64,000 nt of DNA, from the IMG/VR virus record IMGVR_UViG_3300042731_008413, positions 1 through 64,000 of that record. One strand, 5' to 3'. The notes beneath the pieces were generated by a model. That model worked only from the letters and a program-made list of their open reading frames with translations. It was not told the origin of the DNA and did not search any database. The stretch's first letter is position 1. Each line of letters starts with the position of its first letter. The position numbers and the translations under genes were made by a program. This DNA comes from a virus. Of the stretch, positions 3,402-32,501 are shown piece by piece.

Positions 3402-4004
3402 ATGGATAAAAAATTGGTCGTATTATCTTCGTTTTTTGTTACATCTCTGGTTTTATCCAATATCATATCGAGTAAGTTGATGTTGGTAGCCGGGTTTGTT
3501 CTTCCGGTCGGGGTCATCCTATTCCCCGTTAGTTACATTATTGGAGATGTTTTAGCTGAGGTTTATGGATATAAAACGACCAGGTTTGTCATTTTTTTGG
3601 GTTTTACCTGTAACCTGTTCGCGGTTCTGTTTATCTGGTTAGCCATTATGTTGCCACCGGCCTCGATCTATGAAGGACAGCTAGAATTTACTTCTGTTTT
3701 GGGGTTTACCCCCAGGCTATTGGTTGCTTCGTTTGCGGCCTACTTGGTTGGAGAAGTTGCCAATGCGAAGGTAATGGTCTATCTCAAGAAAGCGACTTCT
3801 GGCCGATGGCTTTGGACCAGGACCATATCTTCAACCGTGGTAGGACAAGGGCTAGATTCCCTGTTGTTTATCTCTATAGCTTTCTGGGGCATTGTTCCAC
3901 TTGATATCTTGAGTGGGATGATTGTAACACAATGGCTGTTTAAGGTGGCTTATGAGGCTATAGCTACTCCGTTGACTTATGTTGTTGTGGCTAAGGTTAA
4001 ATAA
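3402..4004 (+). CDS. yhhQ: queuosine-precursor (preQ0/preQ1) transporter, VUT family
   Basis: SNIISSKL, FPVSYIIGDVLAEVYG, RTISSTVVGQGLDS, QWLFKVAYE; GGAGG RBS before ATG 3402. Confidence 0.9.
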   Translation: MDKKLVVLSSFFVTSLVLSNIISSKLMLVAGFVLPVGVILFPVSYIIGDVLAEVYGYKTTRFVIFLGFTCNLFAVLFIWLAIMLPPASIYEGQLEFTSVLGFTPRLLVASFAAYLVGEVANAKVMVYLKKATSGRWLWTRTISSTVVGQGLDSLLFISIAFWGIVPLDILSGMIVTQWLFKVAYEAIATPLTYVVVAKVK

Positions 4005-4379
4005 ATGTGGACCGACTTCCTAAAATATGTCATCCTCAACCAGCGGCCCCAGATAGACGAAACTATCTTCCAGTCAGAACCGGAACGTCAGTTCTACCAC
4101 GCGGCTGTCAAGTTGATTCCCGGCCTAATCCCTCAGGTGCCGGTGCGAGGGTATCAAGTGGATTTCGGGTTGCCGGAGGGTAGGGTATTTTTTGAGGTCT
4201 ATGGCTACCAGTGGCATCACAGCAAGCCAGATATGGAGCGGGATGTAGCCAGGCTGAGGCATCTGGGGTTGTCGGGGTGGATCGGGTGGGTCTTTATGGC
4301 TGATGAAGTGATGGCTGACCCGGAGGCTTGCGCTCGGTTGGCCAGGCAATTGGTGAATGAAATAAGGAGGAGAAAATGA
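4005..4379 (+). CDS. DUF559/Vsr-like PD-(D/E)xK endonuclease
   Basis: SEPER...YQVDF...FEVYGYQWH...ERD...GW. Confidence 0.7.
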   Translation: MWTDFLKYVILNQRPQIDETIFQSEPERQFYHAAVKLIPGLIPQVPVRGYQVDFGLPEGRVFFEVYGYQWHHSKPDMERDVARLRHLGLSGWIGWVFMADEVMADPEACARLARQLVNEIRRRK

Positions 4380-5113
4380 AGACTGTTGTGGTAGCAAAGT
4401 ACAAGTTTCAATTGGGTGTTTTGGTTGGGATTGGGTTGTTGGCAATGTGGGTTCTGACTATGTTGCTACCCCTTAATGTTTATCTGATGATTGGGTGGGC
4501 TATTTGGGGGTTGTTGGGGGTGTGGCTGAGTTGGAGTTGGTTAGCCAGACCCCTCTTTGGGCTTCAGACTGTGCGAATTGGCAAAGAGATAGAATCTGCC
4601 TTTGATCGTTTTGACGAATCGATGGACAAGCTATCTAAAGAGGAAAGTATTTTGCAAGCCGATGTCAGGGACGCGGTTGTATATCAAAGAGAGATCATCA
4701 AGGTATTGACCGGGTTCATCGATAAGGCAGAATCCTTAAAGGCGCAACGCCAACAATTGGTTCAAGGGGTGGGGGAGCAATTATTCTATGACCCGGAATT
4801 TGGGGGGATGCTACAGAGACTTGATCCGGGGAGTAAGCAAGCCACCATTGAATCGGAAAGTGGGATTTTATCGGCCCAAGAGGATGCCTACCGGCAACAA
4901 GCAGCCCTAATCCTGAATCGGGTGATGCAATCTAGAGCAGCTATCGCCCGGCAGCAATTAAAGCTGAAACAAGTCGAGGCCGCTCAACCTATCTTGAGAC
5001 TGAATAAGTCTTTGGGTGATTGTGGAAATCGATTGGCTTATTTGTCTGGGGGGGTGTTGGCTAACATCGGTAATAATTCATTGAAATTATTGGTGGGAGA
5101 TAGCGATGAGTAA
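4376..5113 (+). CDS. membrane-anchored coiled-coil protein
   Basis: Two N-terminal TM helices then a helical Q/E/L-rich region; AGGAG RBS. Confidence 0.6.
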   Translation: MKTVVVAKYKFQLGVLVGIGLLAMWVLTMLLPLNVYLMIGWAIWGLLGVWLSWSWLARPLFGLQTVRIGKEIESAFDRFDESMDKLSKEESILQADVRDAVVYQREIIKVLTGFIDKAESLKAQRQQLVQGVGEQLFYDPEFGGMLQRLDPGSKQATIESESGILSAQEDAYRQQAALILNRVMQSRAAIARQQLKLKQVEAAQPILRLNKSLGDCGNRLAYLSGGVLANIGNNSLKLLVGDSDE

Positions 5114-5369
5114 AATTGTCAGGTCTACTCAGGTAAACTACAACCTGGCCCTGGTGTCCACCATCGAGGGCGACCGGCAGGAGTTGCGGATATTGCCGTT
5201 GGTTCAACTAACGGCACTGATATTCTGGCTATATTCACTGTTTTTGATAGTAGCGACCCTGGATGCCAGAATCCAACTAGCGGTGATAGACGTGGTGCGC
5301 TCCTGGTCGCCGTGGCTTAGTATGGGGGTGGTGGTGGTCAAGGCTTTGTGGTTTGGGGTGGTGGGATGA
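5106..5369 (+). CDS. small membrane protein
   Basis: Two hydrophobic segments; coupled to neighbours. Confidence 0.5.
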   Translation: MSKIVRSTQVNYNLALVSTIEGDRQELRILPLVQLTALIFWLYSLFLIVATLDARIQLAVIDVVRSWSPWLSMGVVVVKALWFGVVG

Positions 5370-5790
5370 AAGTCATCGTTCAGGGCGATGCCCCCAAGCA
5401 AGCTACACCCTATTCGGTAGGATATGATCTGTCAGCTTCAGAGGATGTTCATTTTTGGCCGTTTCAATTCAAGTGGGTGCCAACCGGAATCCACCTGGCT
5501 GTCCCTGATAACATCCAGGTCGAAATCAGACCCAGAAGTAGTATGGGCATCAGCCAGGGGTGGCTGATTCATTACGGCACCATTGACCCGGACTACTTTG
5601 GCGAGGTCAAGGTTGGGATGATGAATCTCAGGCCGTGGCCGCGGAAGTAAAGTTTGGGCAACGAATTGCTCAGGCTGTTTTTAACCGGTATGTCGAGGTT
5701 GAGTTCGAGGCGGGCCACATCTCTGAGTTGAATGTCCATGCGGTGCGGAGCAAGTATGAGCATACTGGGTTTGGGAGTAGCGGAGAATGA
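5366..5790 (+). pseudogene. dut: trimeric dUTPase split by a 1-nt frameshift near 5646
   Basis: Motifs 1-3 (GYDL, RPRSS, GTIDPDYFG) end at TAA 5650; motifs 4-5 (GQRIAQ, GFGSSG) continue in the -1 frame from 5647 to TGA 5790. Confidence 0.85.
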
Positions 5791-6011
5791 GACGATTAAA
5801 AAAATTATGGCATCAATTGAAGGTTTTGTGGGTTGTTAGCCTTGAATTTGAGAATTTGGCTGGAGCTTTGACTAAACAGGCAAAAACTATTGGCTTTCAT
5901 CAAAATGCGATTTATGATCTTTAGTTGAAAATGGGCCAAGAAACTGTGGTACACGAAGACCAACGATGGCTTCGTTTTGTTGGAAGAAAGGCTTTGGAAT
6001 ATGACTCTTGA
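5787..6011 (+). pseudogene. small ORF with an internal TAG at 5922
   Basis: ATGA overlap with dut; frame continues to TGA 6011 overlapping the next ATG. Confidence 0.4.
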
Positions 6012-24700: not shown

Positions 24701-27700
24701 ATGGACATTGCTGTTTTTGCACATCACGTTGGGTCTCAGGGTCTTAAGCCATCAGGACAGTATGGCGGTGGGGAACTTTTGACGTTTGGTTGGCTGTCGG
24801 CCTTGCAAAAGTATTACAATGTAATGACCGTAGTGCCGAATGGGGTCTACCCAGCTTTCGATTCGGCCTACGAATACGGCATTGACCTGTCAGGTATCGA
24901 CTGGCGACCAGTGGGGGATACAGCCGACTGGATTCGGAAATATGATTGCCTGATAAACATCAGCCACAGTAGCTATATGCCCCCTATCTGCCAGCGCAAT
25001 ATTATGGTGACGATGTTCCCCCAACAGCCGGATTGGGATACGTCCGGCTACGATACTATTTGCGCTATCAGTCAATTTTCGGCGGACTGGATCAAGCGAT
25101 ATTGGGGTCGTGAAGCCAAAGTGGTTTATCCCCTTCTACCGGTGCAAGATACCATCGACAGAATCGAGCAAGCCGGCTACGAGAAGCAAAACAACATTGT
25201 AGCCATTGGCCGATTCTTTAACGTGCCGTGGGGTAATAACAAGAGTCACAGTACGTTGATCTCGGCTTTTCAGGGGATGTATAAAGGTGATTGGGCCTTG
25301 ACGTTTGTAGGGTCGGTCCAGGATCAGAAATATCTTCAAGAAGTCAAGCAAGCGGCCAATGGTGACCAGCGCATAAAGTTTTTTCGCGATCTCAAGCGGG
25401 AGCAATATCTGGAACTGTTGGGTAAGTCCAGGTTTTTGTGGCACGCGGCAGGATATGAAGCCACCAAACCATCTTCAATGGAGCATTTCGGGATTATTGC
25501 GGTAGAAGCTCAAGCCGCGGGCACCCAGCCATTTGTATTCAATGGAGGTGGTATTGTTGAGATACCTGGGGTTATTCCCTGGGACACTCCGGCCCAACTG
25601 AGTGAATACACCGTGGTTGAAATCGAAAAGCCAACCCCCAACCCGATGCAAGAAAATGCCCTGACTTTTGACATCGAACGTAATACCGAACGGCTTTTGG
25701 AAATTATCGAGGACCCTCAAGTGGTTGTTGTTCCCAAACCTGAGCAAGCCAAGATTTATGTGGGTGACCCCCATCCCAATGACATCAAAGTAGGGGTGAT
25801 TTCAGATGATCCCAACATCACCACTGGCTTTGGGGCGGTTAGTCGAGCAGTTGTTAAGGGACTGATTAAGCGGGGTTTTCGGGTGGCTGCAATGGGTATC
25901 CAGAACCCCATCGTCGGCAAGACCAAATTGGTACCAGAAGACATCAGACGAATCTTCGGAGAAGTAGTCAATAATCCCCAACTCCCCACAGCCAAAATGA
26001 TGACTCGGGTGTTCGAGGAGAAGTTATCTGAACTGGAATTGTGTACCACCTGGCGGGGCTGTTCCCACGATCCCTCCGGGTTTGATATGATCGAGCAGTT
26101 CCTTAAAATCGAGAAGCCGGACGTGCTTTATATCAATTACGACCCCGGCAACATTCGTAACATCCTGAATGGTATCCAGGATGCCCATGTTGACATCCCT
26201 ATCGTGGCTTATGTCCCCATCGAGGGTAGCCCGGTCATCCCCCAATACATCGAGATGTTACGAACCATTAAGGTGATGAATGGGGAGCCGATTGTCTATA
26301 CCTATGCCGGGCAGAGGGCGGTAATGGAGGCTGGTGGACCAAAATGCAGGGTAGCTCATCACGGTTGTTTTTCTGGTGATACACTAATTACTTTAAGTGA
26401 TGGATCGAAAAAACGCATAGATCGCATTGTGGCAGATAAAGATCATAGTGTTTTGGGGACACATAATGGCAACCCGGTTATTTCTTGTGTTTATGATTGG
26501 ATGACTATCCCAATGATGGATAGTCATATATTAAAAATAACTTTTGACACCGGCGATACATTAAGAGTTACGCGAGATAACCTAGTTTTTACCCAAGATG
26601 GATGGATTAAAGCAAATGATTTGGTGGTCGGTAGTAGGTGTGGTATAATCAATACTAGTACACCACACGCAAATGGAGACTATGATGCCAAATCAAAAAA
26701 TATGGACCAAAGACGAGGAGAGTTGGTTGAAGGCCAATTATCCTACAATGACTCAAACCGATTTGAAAAAGTCATTGGGGAGAACTTGGCCCTCAATAAA
26801 AAGAAAGGCGCAAAGACTGGGCTTATACAGGGAAATAAAAAATCATCACAGAAGATGGACCAAAAAAGACTTGGATTGGCTCAAGTGGAATTACCCTTAT
26901 CTGGATCAAGAAAAGATAGAATCTCACTTAGGGCGAAAATGGAGAGCAATTCAAATAGCAGCCAGGAAAATGGGGGTAGCCAGAACAAACTCCGCCGTGT
27001 ATCAAAAGTCAATAGATCAAAGGCCAAAACTAACATCGGAAGATTGGGCTTATTTGGCTGGAATAATCGATGGAGAAGGTCATTTGACGTTATCAAAAAG
27101 CAATCGAAAAAGTGGTTTTGTTTTGTCTCCAAAGATAGGGGTGGCAAATCAAAGCAAGGCTTTGATGGATTGGATAGTTTTGTCTCTTCCTGTTTATGTT
27201 CATTGCGACAATGGTGTAGAATCTGGGTGGGGGTGGTGTTACCGAGCGCAGATAATTGGGTTCAAGGTAATTCATGTATTAAATGGTATTCTTCCATATA
27301 TGAAAATAAAAAAAGAAAGATGCAAGATTCTGATTTCTTTTTGCGAAAGAAGAATGGCTTTGGGGAATCAGGAACCGTATTCAGAACAAGATTTAGAGGA
27401 TTACCAGAAGATGAAAAAACTAAACTCAAAAAAGGCTTTTCGGTCTCTTGGGGAGTGATAACAAATATCGAATTGGATCACGAATCGATAGTCTACGATC
27501 TGAAAACTAGTACAAGTAATTTTGTTGCAAATAATATTGTTGTTCACAATTGCGATCACGCCCCGTTCAGGATGCTTGACCCGGAAACCCGCAAGCAGTT
27601 AAAAATCGCTTGTGGGTGGGGCAATAAAAAGGTAATGATGTTTGTGGGGCGCAATAAGCGTACCAAGGGTTTTGGAACACTCCTTAAAACGGCCAGAATC

Positions 27701-28342
27701 CTCAAGGATATGGGCCGGGATGACATCGTGTGGTATCTCCATACCTGGGTCTGGGACCAGATGCCCAACTCCTCGATGCCCCTGGATCAATGGGCAAAGC
27801 AGTATGGGATAGCTGATCGAGTAATGTTTCCCGAAATTCAACACCAGGTCTACGGCATCCCCTATGATGAGCCAGCCACCCACCCCCACATCGATGAGAA
27901 CGAATTGGCCCAGATGAGTGAGCAAGACGCGGCCAGGAAACTGGCCAGGATTGCCTTTAACTCTCTGTCGCTTATCGAGCGATATGGTATAGCTACCGCG
28001 TTTATCAACGCTTCTGAAGTTGAGGGGCATGGCTTGACATACTTGGAAGCAATGGGTTGCGGGGTGCCGGTAATCAGCGTCGATGACCAGGGAGTTCAGC
28101 AGGAGGTCATCGGGGACGCGGCCCTGTATGTTCCGGTCAAACATTGGGATGATTTTCATACCGGAGCAAGATTGGCTCAGGGTGATCCCCAGGACTTTGC
28201 CAGGGCTATCATCGACCTGGTTGATAACCAGGATTTGTATAACGAAATGCAACAGAAGGCTCTGGAACGGTATCAACAGTTTAAGTGGGATAAGACGATT
28301 GATATTATCGCCAAAGCTATCATTGAAAGGTACGTGGTATGA
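24701..28342 (+). CDS. tandem GT4-GT4 glycosyltransferase containing an intein
   Basis: EHFGIIAVEA (first GT-B), TGFG..., FVGRN..KG, EGHGLTYLEAMGCG (second GT-B). Confidence 0.85.
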   Translation: MDIAVFAHHVGSQGLKPSGQYGGGELLTFGWLSALQKYYNVMTVVPNGVYPAFDSAYEYGIDLSGIDWRPVGDTADWIRKYDCLINISHSSYMPPICQRNIMVTMFPQQPDWDTSGYDTICAISQFSADWIKRYWGREAKVVYPLLPVQDTIDRIEQAGYEKQNNIVAIGRFFNVPWGNNKSHSTLISAFQGMYKGDWALTFVGSVQDQKYLQEVKQAANGDQRIKFFRDLKREQYLELLGKSRFLWHAAGYEATKPSSMEHFGIIAVEAQAAGTQPFVFNGGGIVEIPGVIPWDTPAQLSEYTVVEIEKPTPNPMQENALTFDIERNTERLLEIIEDPQVVVVPKPEQAKIYVGDPHPNDIKVGVISDDPNITTGFGAVSRAVVKGLIKRGFRVAAMGIQNPIVGKTKLVPEDIRRIFGEVVNNPQLPTAKMMTRVFEEKLSELELCTTWRGCSHDPSGFDMIEQFLKIEKPDVLYINYDPGNIRNILNGIQDAHVDIPIVAYVPIEGSPVIPQYIEMLRTIKVMNGEPIVYTYAGQRAVMEAGGPKCRVAHHGCFSGDTLITLSDGSKKRIDRIVADKDHSVLGTHNGNPVISCVYDWMTIPMMDSHILKITFDTGDTLRVTRDNLVFTQDGWIKANDLVVGSRCGIINTSTPHANGDYDAKSKNMDQRRGELVEGQLSYNDSNRFEKVIGENLALNKKKGAKTGLIQGNKKSSQKMDQKRLGLAQVELPLSGSRKDRISLRAKMESNSNSSQENGGSQNKLRRVSKVNRSKAKTNIGRLGLFGWNNRWRRSFDVIKKQSKKWFCFVSKDRGGKSKQGFDGLDSFVSSCLCSLRQWCRIWVGVVLPSADNWVQGNSCIKWYSSIYENKKRKMQDSDFFLRKKNGFGESGTVFRTRFRGLPEDEKTKLKKGFSVSWGVITNIELDHESIVYDLKTSTSNFVANNIVVHNCDHAPFRMLDPETRKQLKIACGWGNKKVMMFVGRNKRTKGFGTLLKTARILKDMGRDDIVWYLHTWVWDQMPNSSMPLDQWAKQYGIADRVMFPEIQHQVYGIPYDEPATHPHIDENELAQMSEQDAARKLARIAFNSLSLIERYGIATAFINASEVEGHGLTYLEAMGCGVPVISVDDQGVQQEVIGDAALYVPVKHWDDFHTGARLAQGDPQDFARAIIDLVDNQDLYNEMQQKALERYQQFKWDKTIDIIAKAIIERYVV
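26366..27550 (+). mobile_element. intein (395 aa, residues 556-950)
   Basis: HHG|CFSGDTLI block A; VYDL...NFVANNIVVHN|C blocks F/G with Cys+1; visibly more AT-rich than the flanks. Confidence 0.9.
26673..27458 (+). CDS. LAGLIDADG homing endonuclease with N-terminal Myb-like repeats, in an alternate frame inside the intein
   Basis: WAYLAGIIDGEG; two WT..E/D...L..NYP repeats; GGAGA RBS favours start 26682/26685; TGgTATAAT at 26641-26649. Confidence 0.85.
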   Translation: METMMPNQKIWTKDEESWLKANYPTMTQTDLKKSLGRTWPSIKRKAQRLGLYREIKNHHRRWTKKDLDWLKWNYPYLDQEKIESHLGRKWRAIQIAARKMGVARTNSAVYQKSIDQRPKLTSEDWAYLAGIIDGEGHLTLSKSNRKSGFVLSPKIGVANQSKALMDWIVLSLPVYVHCDNGVESGWGWCYRAQIIGFKVIHVLNGILPYMKIKKERCKILISFCERRMALGNQEPYSEQDLEDYQKMKKLNSKKAFRSLGE

Positions 28343-28746
28343 GGCGCAGCGCACCGGTAGAGACCAAACCTTACGTCAAGCCCGAAGTCAAACATCGAGA
28401 CCCACCCAACGGCACTTTCTGGAAATGTGCGGGCTGTGGGTCTGACAACTTCGGCAAGTTCATCGATGGTGAGCTTCATATCAAGTATCGGGAGCGGGTA
28501 ATGGTAGTCGGGGGGATGGTTGAGGTTCATTGTCGTTTTTGCGGTACTCGTAATCAAATCGATTTGGCTGTGTACCCTTATAAGGTGCAGGTTCACTTCA
28601 ATGCCCCGGAATTTGATGTAGAAATCACTGAGGCGGCCTTGCGCCTCGCTCAAGAGAACGGGTTGAATATCAGGCGACTTCAGGGGTCGGGTAAGGACGG
28701 GAAGATCGTGGTGGGGGATGTGAAGGGGGCTTTGGGGTTGAAATAG
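28339..28746 (+). CDS. Com-like zinc ribbon fused to an E3-binding (PSBD) domain
   Basis: CAGC...VEVHCRFCGTRN; ITEAALRLAQENGLN...GSGKDGKI...DV. Confidence 0.65.
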   Translation: MRRSAPVETKPYVKPEVKHRDPPNGTFWKCAGCGSDNFGKFIDGELHIKYRERVMVVGGMVEVHCRFCGTRNQIDLAVYPYKVQVHFNAPEFDVEITEAALRLAQENGLNIRRLQGSGKDGKIVVGDVKGALGLK

Positions 28747-28749
28747 GGG

Positions 28750-28778
28750 TTGACAAATTTTCTATCTTATGGTATTAT
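28750..28778 (+). promoter_or_regulatory. strong sigma70 promoter for a candidate sRNA
   Basis: TTGACA-17-TATTAT with TGn. Confidence 0.75.
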
Positions 28779-28784
28779 CTTTTC

Positions 28785-28922
28785 AGTGTAGATTATCTCA
28801 TTTTATCCTCCTTTGTTAGTTGTCTGCTTCATCTGACCAATGGGGCAGACCTGGACTTATAATAGACGCTAAATAATATAAGTGATTAGAAAGAGGGCGT
28901 CCTAGGCGCCCTCTTTCGCTTT
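28785..28922 (+). ncRNA. candidate anti-Shine-Dalgarno sRNA (~135 nt)
   Basis: Promoter, unpaired CUCAUUUUAUCCUCCU, GU-containing hairpin 28822-28850, terminator; no ORF seen on the + strand. Confidence 0.5.
28889..28922. terminator. intrinsic terminator, probably bidirectional
   Basis: GAAAGAGGGCG...CGCCCTCTTTC stem. Confidence 0.75.
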
Positions 28923-28986
28923 CTCGATGGACATCCCCATACCTATAAAAATGTAATACGTTCTGACTGTGGAAACGGTCGGGGCG

Positions 28987-29139
28987 CGGACCACCCCCAC
29001 ACCTGTGGGGAAATGTTATCCCGGAGGGTTAGCAGTTCTTCCAGATCACGGACCACCCCCACACCTGTGGGGAAATGGTTTCGCCACTGTCTATTCCCTC
29101 ACTCAGATCACGGACCACCCCCACGCCTGTGGGGAAATG
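28987..29139 (-). CRISPR. mini CRISPR array: three 29-nt type I-E-like repeats and two 33-nt spacers
   Basis: Repeats at 28987, 29049, 29111 (period 62); minus strand CATTTCCCCACAGGYGTGGGGGTGGTCCG; no cas genes seen in the window. Confidence 0.9.
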
Positions 29140-29335
29140 ACTTAAATGGCCTATGAGATAGAGTAAATTCCCCAAATGAATCTTATTAGGTTGTGAGGTT
29201 GACAATCCAACAACCTCTCTGTAGCCCTCACCGATCTGGGTCCAAGCGACGAATCTCCCCACCGATTCAGTTACGACATCTACAGCCTCAGTTGTGTTCA
29301 TAGTCAATCGCAGACGATTCAGCCTAACGGCCAAA
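29140..29335 (-). ncRNA. candidate omega-RNA/tracr-like RNA of TnpB
   Basis: Structured non-coding region 3' of tnpB; contains CAGATCG-GTGA-GGGCTAC (29238-29221), complementary to the repeat/spacer junction. Confidence 0.5.
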
Positions 29336-30721
29336 TTAGAGACCAAAACTGGTCGGTCCATTTTGGTCTATATCGTCCAATGCCGCCTGCAAGAGCGGTC
29401 CCACCCTCGGCCATTGCTCATTGGCAACGACTGCATTGAACGTTCCATCTTCGATACAGGTTGCTAAAAATGCGCTATATAAATCTCTTTGAACCACCTC
29501 CCCATCATCGAATTTATGCCATCTTTGCGACAAAGACTTCTTTTTGAATTCGCCGGTTTTGTGGTCTAGCTGGCTCAGTTTTGTGCTATAGGTAGAGAAC
29601 TCTTCAACTAGACCGTCATAATCATCCATCTTTTGCTTCAGCCGGGCTACAAACATCCCCGGAGCACGCATGCCAACGGATTTTCCGAACATCTTTTGAA
29701 ATGCAACGTAAGACAACTTTTCCAAACGGATTACGTTACCCATTTGGAGAATCTGGTTGATTAGTTGTCCGTGTAGCGACTTGCGGTATTCTGCTTGTTT
29801 CCTTTTTAATTCGCTTAATTTTATTTCGGTCTTTAGTTGCCTATTTGATTTTACCCATCGTTTGAGTTGCGAACGTGGTTTAACGGTTCCATCTGTGTTG
29901 TAATTGTCAGGGTTGTTAGCGCGCCGTTGTCGGTCTACCTTACGTTGTAATAGTCGTATATCTCGTTGAATATCCTCTAGTTCCGCGCAGAATTGTTTTA
30001 GAAACGCCATATCTTGAGAAACAACAGCGACAGTTGAGGGGCCGATGTCCAACCCAACAACACCTTTCCCAAGAGAATGTCTTTTGTATGGTTTGCCTAC
30101 ATTGACGAGTTGAGCAAAGAACCTGGTTTTTCCATTGAGTTCACGACGAATCAACCGGACAAATTTTATTTCAGAATTCAGGCCATGAGACATTATCGGG
30201 TCATCGTAATCTATAATAGCCTCAAGTTTGATCTTCTTCCCGTTGCGCCCGGAATTCCACACAACACAGTCATCTCTCCAAATAATGCCTTGTAAATTCG
30301 TTACTCCCTCAACCGAATTTAACTGCCCAAACCTTTTGAATTTTGGCCTCCCCCTTTTTGGGTCAAACAAATATTCGCTCACCCAGGTAAAAGCCCTGGA
30401 TGCCAGTTTTTTAATGGTCTGACTGTCTAAATGATAACCTAACCAGGAGTAACCAAATTGTTTAGCGAAGAAATGAATGTCGTATTCCCTAAACCCAAAT
30501 TCTTTGTTGAGCCTGACAAATTCAGCGGTTCTTTCTTTGCCTTTTGGGAGTAGTCGAGCCTTTTGCCAATCCTTTGATTCCCTCATCAACTTCAAGCGGC
30601 GAAGGGATTCGCCCAAGCAAGCATTATAGACCTGCCTGGCCGCCTCAAAACGCTTATTGAGTACAGACTCCTGAGTGGGGGTTGCTTTTAGGGGGATTTC
30701 GGTAATAAATCTATCAGACAT
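29336..30721 (-). CDS. tnpB: TnpB/Cas12f-like RNA-guided RuvC nuclease (461 aa)
   Basis: AARQVYNACL N-terminal motif; RuvC D (GLDIG), E (RLEKL), D (QRDLYSA) all present; no tnpA nearby. Confidence 0.9.
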   Translation of the reverse strand: MSDRFITEIPLKATPTQESVLNKRFEAARQVYNACLGESLRRLKLMRESKDWQKARLLPKGKERTAEFVRLNKEFGFREYDIHFFAKQFGYSWLGYHLDSQTIKKLASRAFTWVSEYLFDPKRGRPKFKRFGQLNSVEGVTNLQGIIWRDDCVVWNSGRNGKKIKLEAIIDYDDPIMSHGLNSEIKFVRLIRRELNGKTRFFAQLVNVGKPYKRHSLGKGVVGLDIGPSTVAVVSQDMAFLKQFCAELEDIQRDIRLLQRKVDRQRRANNPDNYNTDGTVKPRSQLKRWVKSNRQLKTEIKLSELKRKQAEYRKSLHGQLINQILQMGNVIRLEKLSYVAFQKMFGKSVGMRAPGMFVARLKQKMDDYDGLVEEFSTYSTKLSQLDHKTGEFKKKSLSQRWHKFDDGEVVQRDLYSAFLATCIEDGTFNAVVANEQWPRVGPLLQAALDDIDQNGPTSFGL

Positions 30722-30842
30722 TTTTTAGATAGTTATCGATGGCTCGCCTGACATGCTCGGCCATTGATAAGCCGGTATCACGAACGAGTTGCTTTAATCT
30801 ATTGTATTGAAGAGTAGTCAAATAAATGTTTATGCGTTTCAT
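30714..30842 (-). CDS. CopG/ribbon-helix-helix regulator (42 aa; not in the ORF track)
   Basis: MKRINIYLTTLQYNRLKQLVRDTGLSMAEHVRRAIDNYLKNV; stop lies just downstream of the tnpB ATG (ATGTCTGA). Confidence 0.8.
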   Translation of the reverse strand: MKRINIYLTTLQYNRLKQLVRDTGLSMAEHVRRAIDNYLKNV

Positions 30843-30879
30843 ATACATCTAATATACATCAAATGGGCGTTATTGTCAA
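30841..30879 (-). promoter_or_regulatory. RHH-tnpB promoter with a direct-repeat operator
   Basis: TTGACA-17-TATATT; ATATACATC twice (30841, 30852) over the -10 and start; leaderless. Confidence 0.65.
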
Positions 30880-30887
30880 ATTGGGGA

Positions 30888-30963
30888 TTGACTTTTTTGG
30901 TATTACAGTATAATATACTTATAACACGCTCTGACTGTGGAATCAGTCGGGGTGTTTTCTTTT
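30888..30963 (+). promoter_or_regulatory. head-operon promoter, operator and leader hairpin with U-tract
   Basis: TTGACT-17-TAATAT; TATTACAGTATAATA at 30901-30915; ACGCTCTGACTG-TGGAAT-CAGTCGGGGTGT-TTTCTTTT. Confidence 0.65.
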
Positions 30964-30983
30964 GCCCCGAGAAGGGGCAATCG

Positions 30984-32501
30984 ATGAAGGGCATCAAATA
31001 CCAACGAATCATTCAAGCGGCCATCGAAATACCGTGGGCTATCCTGCCCACCAAGTTAGCCCTTATTCAGAACTTGATTACGTTCCGGGCTTCCGGGGGG
31101 CATCTGACAGAGGATGAAATCAGGGCCAGGATTGGAGACTCGGAATCCCACGAACCCATCATCAAGGTTCACTACTCTGCCCAGAATGGTTCTGCCAGCA
31201 ACGGCAGTCGCCCCCAGACAGCCGCAGTTCTCCCCCTCGTAGGCACCATTATTCCCCGAATGGATATGTTCGCCGAATCCAGCGGAGCCATTTCCATCCA
31301 ACGTTTCCAAAATATGTTTCGCCAGGCATTGGCCGATGGCGAGATCGACAACATCATCATCGACATCGATTCTCCCGGTGGGCAGGTTTCTGGGGTGCAA
31401 GAAATGGCCGATGAGATTTTTGACTCTCGCGGCCAAAAACCCATTACCGCAGTAGCCAACACCCTGGCCGCCAGTGCCGCCTACTGGATAGCCACGGCTG
31501 CTGATGAGGTTGTAGTAACCCCCAGTAGCGAAGTGGGTAGCATTGGCGTGTTTGCCATTCACGAAGACCTCTCCAAAATGCTGGATCAGGTTGGGGTCAA
31601 AATGTCGTTGATCTCAGCCGGCAAGTACAAGACCGAAGGCAACCCCTTTGAACCTTTGGGGGATGAAGCCCGAGAAGCCATCCAACAGCGGGTGCTGGAA
31701 TATTTTGATGCTTTTACCGCAGGAGTGGCCCGTAATCGAGATGTCAGTCAATTTAAAGTGAATGATGGTTTTGGGCAGGGGCGAGTAGTGGGGGCCGAAG
31801 AAGCGGTAAAAGAGGGGATGGCCGATAGAGTAGCCACCCTGGATGAAACGATCAATTACGTTTTATCCCAACCAAACGAAATTAGCGCCAACGGAAACAG
31901 CAAGTTGTATTCTTTCCAGGAGCTTACGCAAGAGTTCTTTGGAAGTAATTCTATAAGCGTTATTCCCGGTGGCGATAATGATAAAGTAATCATTGGCGCA
32001 GATACAGGAGGCGATCTTATGCCAAACACTAAAGATCAGCCAACGAAGTCCGAAGAAGTCCAGGCATTGGAATTACCGGATGGCACCAAGCTGACTGCGG
32101 AGCAGGTTCAGATTTTGCTGGCCGAGAACAAAGAAGCCCGTCAAGAGGCTAAGGCCATCAAAGTCGAGGCGATGATCGACAAGGCTCGCCAACGCGGGGT
32201 GGCCCCGGCTACCTTGCAGGTGGTCGAGGCGATGTTGACCAAAGCCGAACCGGATGCTCCCCCGGTGCTGTCGTTGGGTGACGAGCAGTACAATATGTTC
32301 GGTGGCCTGGGCTATCTTCTGGAAGTCATTCCGGGCCGGCAAATGGCGGAATTGACCCGAGACGAACCGGGCGAAAAGCCGCCGATGGAGACCATGAAAG
32401 CCAACCCTGGCCCTCAGACCCTGGAAGAAGCTGAGGAGCAGGCCAAGAAGCGGCGGGCGGAACTGGGCATCAAGCCGGTGACGCAGGCTGAGTTGGCGTA
32501 G
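30984..32501 (+). CDS. S49 prohead protease with C-terminal scaffold (probable internal start 32019, lambda C/Nu3-like)
   Basis: DIDSPGG, AASAAYWIA, VGSIGV, SAGKYK; AGGAGG before in-frame ATG 32019. Confidence 0.9.
   Translation: MKGIKYQRIIQAAIEIPWAILPTKLALIQNLITFRASGGHLTEDEIRARIGDSESHEPIIKVHYSAQNGSASNGSRPQTAAVLPLVGTIIPRMDMFAESSGAISIQRFQNMFRQALADGEIDNIIIDIDSPGGQVSGVQEMADEIFDSRGQKPITAVANTLAASAAYWIATAADEVVVTPSSEVGSIGVFAIHEDLSKMLDQVGVKMSLISAGKYKTEGNPFEPLGDEAREAIQQRVLEYFDAFTAGVARNRDVSQFKVNDGFGQGRVVGAEEAVKEGMADRVATLDETINYVLSQPNEISANGNSKLYSFQELTQEFFGSNSISVIPGGDNDKVIIGADTGGDLMPNTKDQPTKSEEVQALELPDGTKLTAEQVQILLAENKEARQEAKAIKVEAMIDKARQRGVAPATLQVVEAMLTKAEPDAPPVLSLGDEQYNMFGGLGYLLEVIPGRQMAELTRDEPGEKPPMETMKANPGPQTLEEAEEQAKKRRAELGIKPVTQAELA

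Follow-up and report, generated by a model that had tools for sequence, protein, structure and literature searches.

A phage-borne TnpB gene with a retained omega-RNA scaffold is linked to a type I-E-like CRISPR mini-array in a Chloroflexota-associated lineage: a candidate case of array capture

The window analysed here, i.e. the whole stretch of 64,000 nucleotides (nt) at positions 1 to 64,000 of the IMG/VR virus record IMGVR_UViG_3300042731_008413, holds a compact cassette in which the gene for a TnpB-type nuclease is followed by a non-coding region derived from an omega-RNA and by a very short CRISPR array of type I-E-like character. The source phage derives from a wetland metagenome, is complete (83,420 bp, with direct terminal repeats) and is represented in the window by its first 64 kb. 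The cassette is located between a gene for a 135-amino-acid (aa) protein (28339-28746, plus strand) and the gene for an S49 head-maturation protease (from 30984, plus strand), and is read on the minus strand in the order promoter, ribbon-helix-helix (RHH) gene, tnpB, 196 nt of non-coding DNA, and three repeats with two spacers. An earlier sequence-only reading of this DNA had described a promoter, an RHH gene, a TnpB with intact RuvC and without tnpA, a non-coding region, and three type I-E-like repeats enclosing two 33-nt spacers that both begin with TGATCTG, and each of these elements was found in place. The features of the cassette are the following.

30879-30851, minus strand: putative sigma-70-like promoter, TTGACA-17-TATATT (consensus scan, 11 of 12 matches, by sequence match alone)
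30848/30842-30714, minus strand: RHH (CopG-like) gene, 44 aa from the first ATG or 42 aa from the ATG at 30842
30721-29336, minus strand: open reading frame (ORF) of the TnpB-type nuclease, 461 aa
29338-29176, minus strand: scaffold derived from omega-RNA (right-end element RNA, reRNA), with stems P1-P4 kept, a 32-nt insert in the P4 loop, and P5 not formed
29285-29280 with 29224-29219, minus strand: stem P3, CUGUAG paired with CUACAG
29175-29140, minus strand: remnant of the scaffold end plus end of the I-E leader, by direct reading
29139-29111, minus strand: repeat 1, type I-E family, CATTTCCCCACAGGCGTGGGGGTGGTCCG
29110-29078, minus strand: spacer 1, 33 nt, beginning with TGATCTG
29077-29049, minus strand: repeat 2, with one C-to-T change in the loop
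29048-29016, minus strand: spacer 2, 33 nt, beginning with TGATCTG
29015-28987, minus strand: repeat 3, terminal, followed by CGCCCC instead of the 7-mer

About 170 related loci were collected from viral, genome and metagenome collections, most of them ordinary insertion sequences, and the TnpB family concerned is very large (3,295 matches among 8,000 scored candidates; 3,145 representative clusters). In a maximum-likelihood tree of 87 proteins, obtained by a quick search and rooted at the midpoint, the five loci in which tnpB is followed, at about 200 nt on its 3' side, by a type I-E-like array group together in a single clade (Shimodaira-Hasegawa-like approximate likelihood ratio test, SH-aLRT, 99), and this clustering was matched by none of 500 label shuffles. 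Besides the window, these loci are L004, in a second complete phage of 90 kb that is unrelated to the window phage (two repeats); L094 (eight repeats) and L095 (six), which stand on two nearly identical copies of a contig from a mobile element encoding ParM-like and DnaC-like proteins; and L013, on an Anaerolineae chromosome (OZ241372.1; 16 repeats, 15 of them identical), so that only four independent array lineages are present in the sample. A sixth member of the clade, L093, is placed close to L094 (protein branch lengths of at most 0.03; 100 differences over 1,371 coding nt), and its contig stops 85 nt after the ORF, too early to reveal an array. The clade is nested among array-less Chloroflexota elements, with sister clades that end in an ordinary right end. 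Beyond the module itself, the carriers (the two phages and the contig of the mobile element) have nothing in common, and tnpB and array have remained adjacent in several unrelated genomic contexts, despite a protein divergence of about 50%.

Because the array loci form a single well-supported clade, the array is, on phylogenetic grounds, not a chance neighbour of tnpB, and the earlier proposal that the two belong together gains from the observation that their adjacency holds in every sampled clade member with enough flanking sequence. It might be argued that the array is a decaying, functionless relic left by a chance insertion, next to a TnpB that is an ordinary solo insertion-sequence copy, considering that the phage arrays are tiny (one or two spacers), that the repeats of L094 are degenerate and that no targets were found for the window spacers. 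Such a relic is very improbable, given that the array has been retained in the clade across deep divergence, that the long array of L013 is nearly uniform, that the three 29-nt repeats of the window show one base difference overall, and that this TnpB has no insertion-sequence ends. No further copy of the repeat is present in the phage.

The lack of ends is best appreciated by comparison with the ordinary relatives (e.g. L014-L017, L096-L098 and L060-L092), whose proteins are 42-62% identical and whose omega-RNAs have the same stems P1-P4. Their homology stops sharply at a right end of the form ...GAACCCC(C)GGCTTTAGCC(G)TGGGGAG-NN-TCAG, and the family left end begins after T(G/T)AC, as deduced from 13 aligned Nitrospirota copies and six other loci, which identifies T(G/T)AC as the target-adjacent motif (TAM) of the family. 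Ordinary IS200/IS605 TnpB elements thus possess a left end with a hairpin, an invariant P5, a terminal ...TCAG and many copies per genome, and no array, whereas the window has none of these ends: no left-end-like hairpin lies upstream, P5 is unformed and tnpB is single-copy in the phage. A Y1 TnpA was found neither anywhere in the 83.4-kb phage (G000) nor in phage G402. A clean definition of TAM and ends is offered by a Nitrospirota metagenome-assembled genome (CAWJQQ01), in which an active TnpB-only element has over 30 near-identical copies (L060-L092, e.g. L060 at about 3870-5510), a left end that starts after TTAC and a hairpin mirroring that of the right end.

The 461-aa protein itself seems to be maintained, because its RuvC triad is intact, it is predicted to adopt a TnpB fold and its clade shows a low ratio of nonsynonymous to synonymous substitutions (dN/dS). 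In an 80-sequence alignment D225 and E334 are invariant and D413 is at least 90% conserved. Pfam detects only the N-terminal HTH_OrfB_IS605 domain, the NCBIfam profile guided_TnpB matches at 4.4e-22 (below its own cutoff) and phrog_506 at 5e-42, while a sequence-profile search of the PDB matched no chain. An AlphaFold2 model (mean predicted local distance difference test score 96.2) has as its top Foldseek matches ISDra2 TnpB 8h1j (E 1e-14, TM 0.57/0.70), ISFba1 TnpB 8iaz and AsCas12f, followed at lower rank by LaTranC (E 1e-10) and Fanzor2, and the modelled structure corresponds to the TnpB fold (WED, REC, split RuvC). The C4 zinc-finger cysteines, located between RuvC-II and RuvC-III, are replaced (LDHKTGEF...KFDDGE), and the same loss occurs in P0005, P0006, P0013 and P0019; L004 and L094 retain CxxC...CxC. 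The occurrence of this replacement in a sub-branch indicates a maintained zinc-finger-less variant rather than a broken gene. Comparison of tnpB between L093 and L094 gave a dN/dS of 0.093, pointing to purifying selection on TnpB in the array clade.

The non-coding region downstream of tnpB was analysed with an omega-RNA consensus derived from 22 array-less relatives, which has five stems and in which 14 of 27 pairs show compensatory changes; the covariance model R1 was built solely from these relatives. R1 matches the window at full length over 29338-29176 (39.3 bits, E ~5e-8) and also matches L004 (68.9 bits) and L094 (54.6 bits), the scaffold of L013 being too diverged. The pairs of P3 show between 3 and 11 both-sided changes among the 22 relatives, and the window is aligned without non-canonical pairs. 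Since P3 differs among clade members (CUGUAG/CUACAG in the window, CUGUGG/CCACAG in L004, CCCCGG/CCGGGG in L094) yet stays paired, covariation indicates that the scaffold remains under structural selection inside the array clade.

This result bears directly on the mechanism that had been put forward in the sequence-only reading, according to which the omega-RNA is split and CRISPR RNAs (crRNAs) cut by Cas6e, consisting of the 8-nt handle GUGGUCCG followed by UGAUCUG and a guide, dock on a trans-activating (tracr)-like anti-repeat at 29238-29221. A duplex of 14 bp and -17.7 kcal/mol can indeed be drawn, the 7-mer is identical in both window spacers, and the single spacer of L004 starts with the similar sequence TGACCAG. 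However, shuffled handles reach -13.9 ± 2.2 kcal/mol and 6% of them pair equally well or better, and the proposed partner has other roles: GGGCUAC belongs to the 3' arm of the covarying stem P3 and to a conserved GAGRGC motif, both also present in array-less relatives, and CAGAUCG-GUGA sits in the P4 loop, where the array-less L014 has CAGAUGGUGGGAGAGC at the same place. The CAGAUCG part moreover lies in a GACCCAGRUC stretch that is also present in L094, where the spacers lack a constant 7-mer. None of the four array loci has a positionally conserved anti-repeat, and the sequences that pair best with handle plus 7-mer are at non-homologous places in L094, L004 and L013. Because the non-coding region is an omega-RNA with a covarying P3, the split-guide pairing is largely refuted, and the split omega-RNA as a whole is scarcely credible; the more general idea of a TnpB-to-Cas12 intermediate, for which TranC and the Cas12r of Thermus phages are precedents, survives the loss of this particular pairing. 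A second anti-repeat candidate, in which the 5' half of the repeat would pair over 10 bp with GGUGGGGAGAUU in the P4-loop insert, was rejected as neither significant nor locus-specific. The best repeat-scaffold duplexes were in general equalled by 3-15% of shuffles and were neither positionally conserved nor specific.

The one stem that is lost is P5, which in ordinary members is the best-conserved element, with pairs kept in 19-22 of the 22 relatives. In the window the model skips 25 positions at this point and the region folds no better than shuffles, and in L004 and L094 only the outer CCCC/GGGG pairs are left, so that P5 is broken or missing in all three array loci in which the scaffold is detectable. 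At 29175-29140 the window has a weak CCUC...GGGG vestige and tail, and then about 21 nt ending in AAGT before repeat 1. The distance from scaffold end to repeat 1 amounts to 19 nt in L004, 22 nt in L094 and, in the window, 36 nt according to the model (about 21 nt when judged by eye), and all three gaps end in (T/A)AGT. Pairing between leader and handle was considered in the fold of repeat 1, where the extended hairpin gave a z of only -1.6. The possibility that the repeat itself is the guide, with the scaffold ending in ...AAGUCA at the junction, is unsupported, as the model ends the scaffold at 29176 and no hairpin precedes the junction.

The repeat that follows this decayed end has the geometry of an ordinary one. 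An ordinary omega-RNA ends in GUGGGG plus 8-9 nt and then the guide, and in the I-E repeat GUGGGG and 8 nt likewise precede the spacer. Over its last 18 nt the window repeat is closer to an ordinary omega-RNA end than 500 of 500 shuffles, with AGACGTGGGGAGTGGTCAG of L100 as the best match, and for L094 the corresponding shuffle fraction is 0.008.

With regard to the origin of the repeats, the window array has the features of a type I-E array, i.e. 29-nt repeats with a hairpin and an 8-nt 3' handle, and 33-nt spacers; the repeat folds at -11.7 kcal/mol into a hairpin of 6-7 bp at nt 5-22, after which the handle follows. A complete I-E operon, from cas3 through cas6e to cas1 and cas2, is present in G001, the Anaerolineae genome that holds L013, at a distance of 3.4 Mb from that locus. 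The cas-adjacent array of G001 has more than 70 repeats of the sequence ATATTCCCCACAGGCGTGGGGGTGAACCG and spacers mostly of 32-33 nt, and the window repeat is identical to this repeat at 24 of 29 positions and forms the same hairpin, in agreement with the earlier view of it as a host-type I-E repeat; next to tnpB, G001 (L013) has an array built from a 25/29 variant of the cas-adjacent repeat. Among 401 sampled Chloroflexota genomes, repeats within two mismatches of that of the window occur only in G001 (108 copies) and in G300 (two solitary copies). The phage is therefore likely to infect an Anaerolineae-like bacterium with an I-E system, as judged from repeat similarity, and the Cas6e of such a host is thus expected to recognise the phage repeat, given what is established about Cas6e. 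Cas6e was found neither in the window phage nor in the second phage; Cas6e, Cascade, Cas3 and Cas1-Cas2 are available in trans in the candidate host lineage G001.

Several side observations concern the same genomes. In G300, solitary I-E-like repeat units without spacers or adjacent repeats occur at L178 1498-1527 and at L180 1278-1307 and 1498-1527. In the cas-adjacent I-E array of G001 (L173 13628-18001) the final G is replaced by A, T or C in several repeats; the last repeat base is derived from the protospacer-adjacent motif (PAM) in I-E systems, and the variation at the repeat ends of G001 fits this. Directly upstream of tnpB at L013 (1546-3912) lie genes for an IscB-like protein (RRXRR and HNH, 420 aa) and a 307-aa restriction-endonuclease-like protein, so that two different OMEGA-type nucleases stand side by side there, next to an orphan array of an I-E variant.

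The spacers of the clade provided a single protospacer. Spacer 4 of L094 agrees with the gene that directly follows its array (5253-5285 and 5752-5784) at 28 of 33 nt, the first 15 being perfect, with a 5' flank ATG whose G is shared with the repeat end. The sequence-only reading had proposed protospacer length as a way to tell TnpB guides from Cascade spacers, and this only case aligns over all 33 nt; it points to acquisition of the I-E type, with a relative of the element that carries the array as the source, and the near-self target suggests targeting of related elements. An exact search of IMG/VR revealed no perfect target of this spacer. For the window spacers, no protospacers were found in their own phage and in more than 170 collected loci, and searches with exact 20-mers in IMG/VR and with blastn in INPHARED were negative or at chance level; the arrays of L013 and L094 had no match in INPHARED, and none of 69 G001 spacers matched the window phage.

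The constant 7-mer that opens both window spacers is not conserved across loci: it does not follow the terminal repeat, the spacers of L013 share nothing at this position and those of L094 share a leading T, found after all eight repeats. In the two phage arrays, i.e. the window and L004, the spacers open with TGAY-C-W-G, which resembles the family TAM T(G/T)AC, the omega-RNA tail (UGGUCAG) and the handle of the repeat itself. One possibility is that the repeat is 36 nt long and the guides 26 nt; alternatively, the 7-mer could have arisen by degenerate duplication of the handle, or could mark spacers that were selected for TnpB.

Taken together, these data are most readily read as a module resembling TranC and Cas12r, whose immobilised TnpB draws on an I-E array acquired by capture, a reading to which an even chance is assigned; it is probably a natural intermediate between transposon and CRISPR system. 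That such an intermediate arose by capture, and not by de novo formation of repeats, is held with equally balanced confidence. This reading is favoured because of the context-independent, clade-wide linkage, the purifying selection on a nuclease left with no means of transposition, the decay of P5, the geometry shared by repeat and omega-RNA end, and the existence of precedents. The loading of array guides by TnpB, their processing and their targets are inferred from this arrangement.

As to how the module may have arisen, an IS200/IS605-type TnpB element with the TAM T(G/T)AC would have inserted about 20 nt upstream of the first I-E repeat, pointing into the array, and would then have shed its left end and its dependence on a transposase. 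Regulator, TnpB, omega-RNA scaffold and I-E array would since have moved as a single unit, found for the most part on Chloroflexota phages and other mobile elements of that phylum. In this regard, the cas-adjacent leader of G001 ends in ...GAGTAG and, 23 nt ahead of repeat 1, contains TGAC, the family TAM; this, along with the gaps of about one guide length in the array loci, fits an ancestral insertion into an I-E leader. As by our estimate chance alone would place a TGAC at 17-25 nt from a repeat in about 7% of cases, this leader as an unoccupied insertion site is only suggestive.

As to how the module would work, the RHH-controlled promoter is proposed to drive one transcript comprising tnpB, scaffold and array, of which TnpB would still require scaffold stems P1-P4. 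The decayed guide-proximal hairpin would have been replaced by the I-E repeat, which offers a CCCC/GGGG hairpin, 8 nt and then a guide, and this shared geometry is the reason why both spacers would serve as TnpB guides, probably against rival mobile elements. Spacer acquisition, and possibly crRNA cutting, would be carried out by the Cas1-Cas2 and Cas6e of the host I-E system. Guides presented by a crRNA hairpin may need no tracr anti-repeat, as in Cas12r.

A number of results weigh against this use of the array by TnpB. A search for an anti-repeat with the whole repeat, with its 3' half plus the 7-mer, with the handle plus the 7-mer and with the 5' half gave no significant, conserved or locus-specific partner. 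The window spacers, allowing up to three mismatches, found nothing above chance level in the genomes G001 and G300 and in phage G402. The family TAM T(G/T)AC does not fit the ATG flank of the L094 protospacer, so that TnpB would need a changed TAM, and the full 33-nt alignment is like that of an ordinary I-E spacer. The similarity between repeat and omega-RNA end shows no excess for L013 or L004. Finally, the scaffold is contiguous and complete up to its tail and is followed by 19-36 nt, and TnpB could therefore simply use its own cis guide.

These objections are met by an alternative that is clearly less probable than the captured-array reading and still a real possibility, namely that two systems are joined by linkage only. 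The mini-array would then be served by host Cas6e and Cascade-Cas3 against competitors, and a selfish, immobilised TnpB would use its own contiguous omega-RNA with the leader remnant of about 20 nt as guide, aimed at unoccupied I-E leaders. Typical I-E repeats with 32-33-nt spacers and a host-type sequence and hairpin, the acquisition signature and mismatching TAM of the L094 target, a scaffold that needs no second RNA, the missing anti-repeat, a gap to repeat 1 that corresponds to one guide length in L004 and L094 (19-22 nt) and a G001 leader that looks like an unoccupied site would all be accommodated. An insertion next to an array can also be seen in L012 (IMGVR_UViG_3300047498_000057, 5412-5960), a family member from another branch with an intact, canonical right end, where a degenerate array of about 36-37-nt repeats with a period of 66 starts 15 nt past that end; it is apparently an independent, recent insertion of TnpB just upstream of a different, unrelated phage array. 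Virus-borne CRISPR mini-arrays that use host Cas proteins were reportedly described by Medvedeva and colleagues and by Faure and colleagues in 2019; they are like the window in having one or two spacers, host-like repeats and no cas genes, and the L094 spacer, being directed at a diverged version of the gene beside its array, likewise fits targeting of relatives. Such mini-arrays are, however, not tied to a TnpB and its scaffold, whereas in the array clade the nuclease gene always accompanies the array. On the other hand, a TnpB without transposase or left end, with a guide that matches nothing in the phage backbone, would have no obvious route of persistence, and mere linkage has to be reconciled with strong purifying selection, with adjacency kept through deep divergence and changing contexts, and with the decay of precisely P5, the element adjoining the cis guide. 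Besides, the constant 7-mer at the start of both window spacers is not explained by Cascade biology, and the chance expectation for the leader TGAC lessens the weight of the unoccupied site. Should linkage be the whole explanation, the locus would be a phage mini-array with a hitch-hiking nuclease and its significance would be more modest.

Returning to the captured-array reading, a more specific version, which is regarded as unlikely, would make TnpB a class 2-type effector running on class 1 machinery. TnpB would load crRNAs that were acquired by host I-E Cas1-Cas2 and cut by Cas6e; the I-E hairpin and 8-nt handle would replace the lost hairpin and tail of the omega-RNA, and the remaining omega-RNA would serve as a scaffold of its own that lacks an anti-repeat of the classical kind. 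The constant TGAYCWG would then be an element specific to TnpB, copied from the T(G/T)AC TAM or the omega-RNA tail, that marks spacers selected for TnpB and not for Cascade.

Among the closest known systems is Cas12r of the Thermus Lalka phages, a TnpB-like nuclease that is experimentally active with 29-bp degenerate repeats (Trofimova et al., bioRxiv 10.64898/2026.04.20.719267). According to its authors, these repeats share sequence elements with the host I-E repeat, the spacers are 31-33 nt long, the ARG PAM overlaps the I-E PAM, no tracrRNA is involved and adaptation by the host I-E system is proposed (bioRxiv 10.64898/2026.04.20.719267). The window resembles Cas12r in its 29-bp I-E-like repeats, spacer length, lack of adaptation genes and proposed role in conflicts between mobile elements. 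It differs in that Cas12r has 564 aa, an array 15 bp after the ORF and crRNA alone, whereas the window has a 461-aa protein and a 163-nt omega-RNA scaffold between ORF and array; furthermore, the function of Cas12r has been shown experimentally, whereas the module described here is known from its sequence. Since no Thermus phage was among the matches of a tblastn search of INPHARED with the window TnpB (the presence of the Lalka genomes in that copy of INPHARED being unconfirmed), the lineage looks independent of Cas12r.

TranC, also among the closest known systems, is guided by a reRNA-derived tracr and a crRNA (Jin et al., Cell 2025, cited in PMC13565253; bioRxiv 10.64898/2026.03.27.714800). 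Some TranC are phage-borne (CauTranC9; PMC13565253), and structures of LaTranC are 9jfo/9jfq. TranC loci share with the window a TnpB-sized effector and a reRNA-derived non-coding region between the gene and a downstream array on the same strand, and LaTranC is one of the structural matches of the TnpB model (E 1e-10). Reported TranC repeats are 32-38 bp, of unknown subtype and with a tracr anti-repeat in some clades, whereas the window has 29-bp I-E repeats and no convincing anti-repeat. Candidate V-U* variants have been recognised as TnpB clades in which a downstream array is conserved and further cas genes are lacking (PMC10691335; PMC12669027). The array clade has all of these properties; the V-U* surveys (Altae-Tran et al., PNAS 2023; Makarova et al. 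2025) left out arrays linked to other CRISPR types, and the array here is of class 1.

The literature already infers some 40-50 independent associations of TnpB with arrays, and an open question is whether the repeats grew from the guide RNA of the TnpB itself or were gained by landing next to an existing array, the latter being a route that "cannot be ruled out" (PMC10691335). The array clade is an apparently clean natural example of the capture route, since it combines a recognisable class 1 (I-E) array of the host lineage with a retained scaffold in which the one element replaceable by the repeat has decayed, and with a related I-E leader that may still hold an unoccupied insertion site. 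While TranC and Cas12r are already described, the lineage reported here is a separate, Chloroflexota-associated one with a TnpB-sized, zinc-finger-less protein and a scaffold kept beside a recognisable class 1 array. It extends the recently reported phage systems in which a tiny nuclease is paired with I-E-like arrays by a mesophilic lineage associated with Chloroflexota, and its 461-aa zinc-finger-less protein is a candidate nuclease.

The small gene at the head of the cassette encodes an RHH protein (PF01402 RHH_1, E 2.9e-7; PF12651, E 3.7e-6) whose stop overlaps the tnpB start. In tblastn searches with the window RHH, no homologue was found beside L004, L013 and L093-L095; a divergent RHH occurs only in the distant family members L140, L158 and L164, and L094 has a helix-turn-helix-like 78-aa ORF at the place of the RHH gene. 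Archaeal RHH/MazE-TnpB pairs have been proposed as toxin-antitoxin modules (Altae-Tran et al. 2023, PMC10691335), and these likewise have a small co-oriented RHH gene directly upstream of tnpB and a long 3' untranslated region; that clade (PMC10691335) is, however, archaeal and has a rearranged catalytic site, whereas here the RHH is unconserved within the clade. A toxin-antitoxin pair of RHH and TnpB is unsupported for this reason, and a transcriptional regulator of the cassette would be the simpler reading.

The cassette as a whole is flanked by two copies of a 40-nt direct repeat:

28945-28984: downstream copy of the 40-nt direct repeat
30913-30952: upstream copy of the 40-nt direct repeat

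The copies are 80% identical, are spaced 1968 nt apart and enclose the entire 1,968-bp cassette, and the core motif of the repeat occurs in two copies in the whole phage, both of them these flanks. On the plus strand, the upstream copy forms a terminator-like hairpin with a T-run (30926-30955) just before the S49 protease gene. Because this two-copy repeat brackets the cassette and its upstream copy is terminator-like, the cassette looks like an insertion into an intergenic terminator region. For a comparison with an empty site, the nearest phages by S49 protease were 46-49% identical, too distant at the nucleotide level. No Rfam family matched over 28000-31500, and public sequencing runs included no RNA run holding the stretch, only two wetland DNA runs, of which one is probably its source.

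Around the cassette, a strong promoter-like TTGACA-17-TATTAT with an extended TG (28750-28778, plus strand; 11 of 12 matches) is directed into about 130 ORF-free nt, before a GC-rich hairpin at about 28892-28914 downstream of the array. Further away, a 1,213-aa glycosyltransferase-like ORF (24701-28342, plus strand) apparently contains an intein-like insert, and a 261-aa ORF in another frame inside it (26673-27458, plus strand) has the LAGLIDADG-type motif YLAGIIDGEG. The 135-aa protein encoded next to the array combines a zinc-ribbon-like CxxC pair with a C-terminal E3-binding (peripheral subunit-binding) domain (PF02817, E 3e-8), and is an unusual neighbour for phage head genes.

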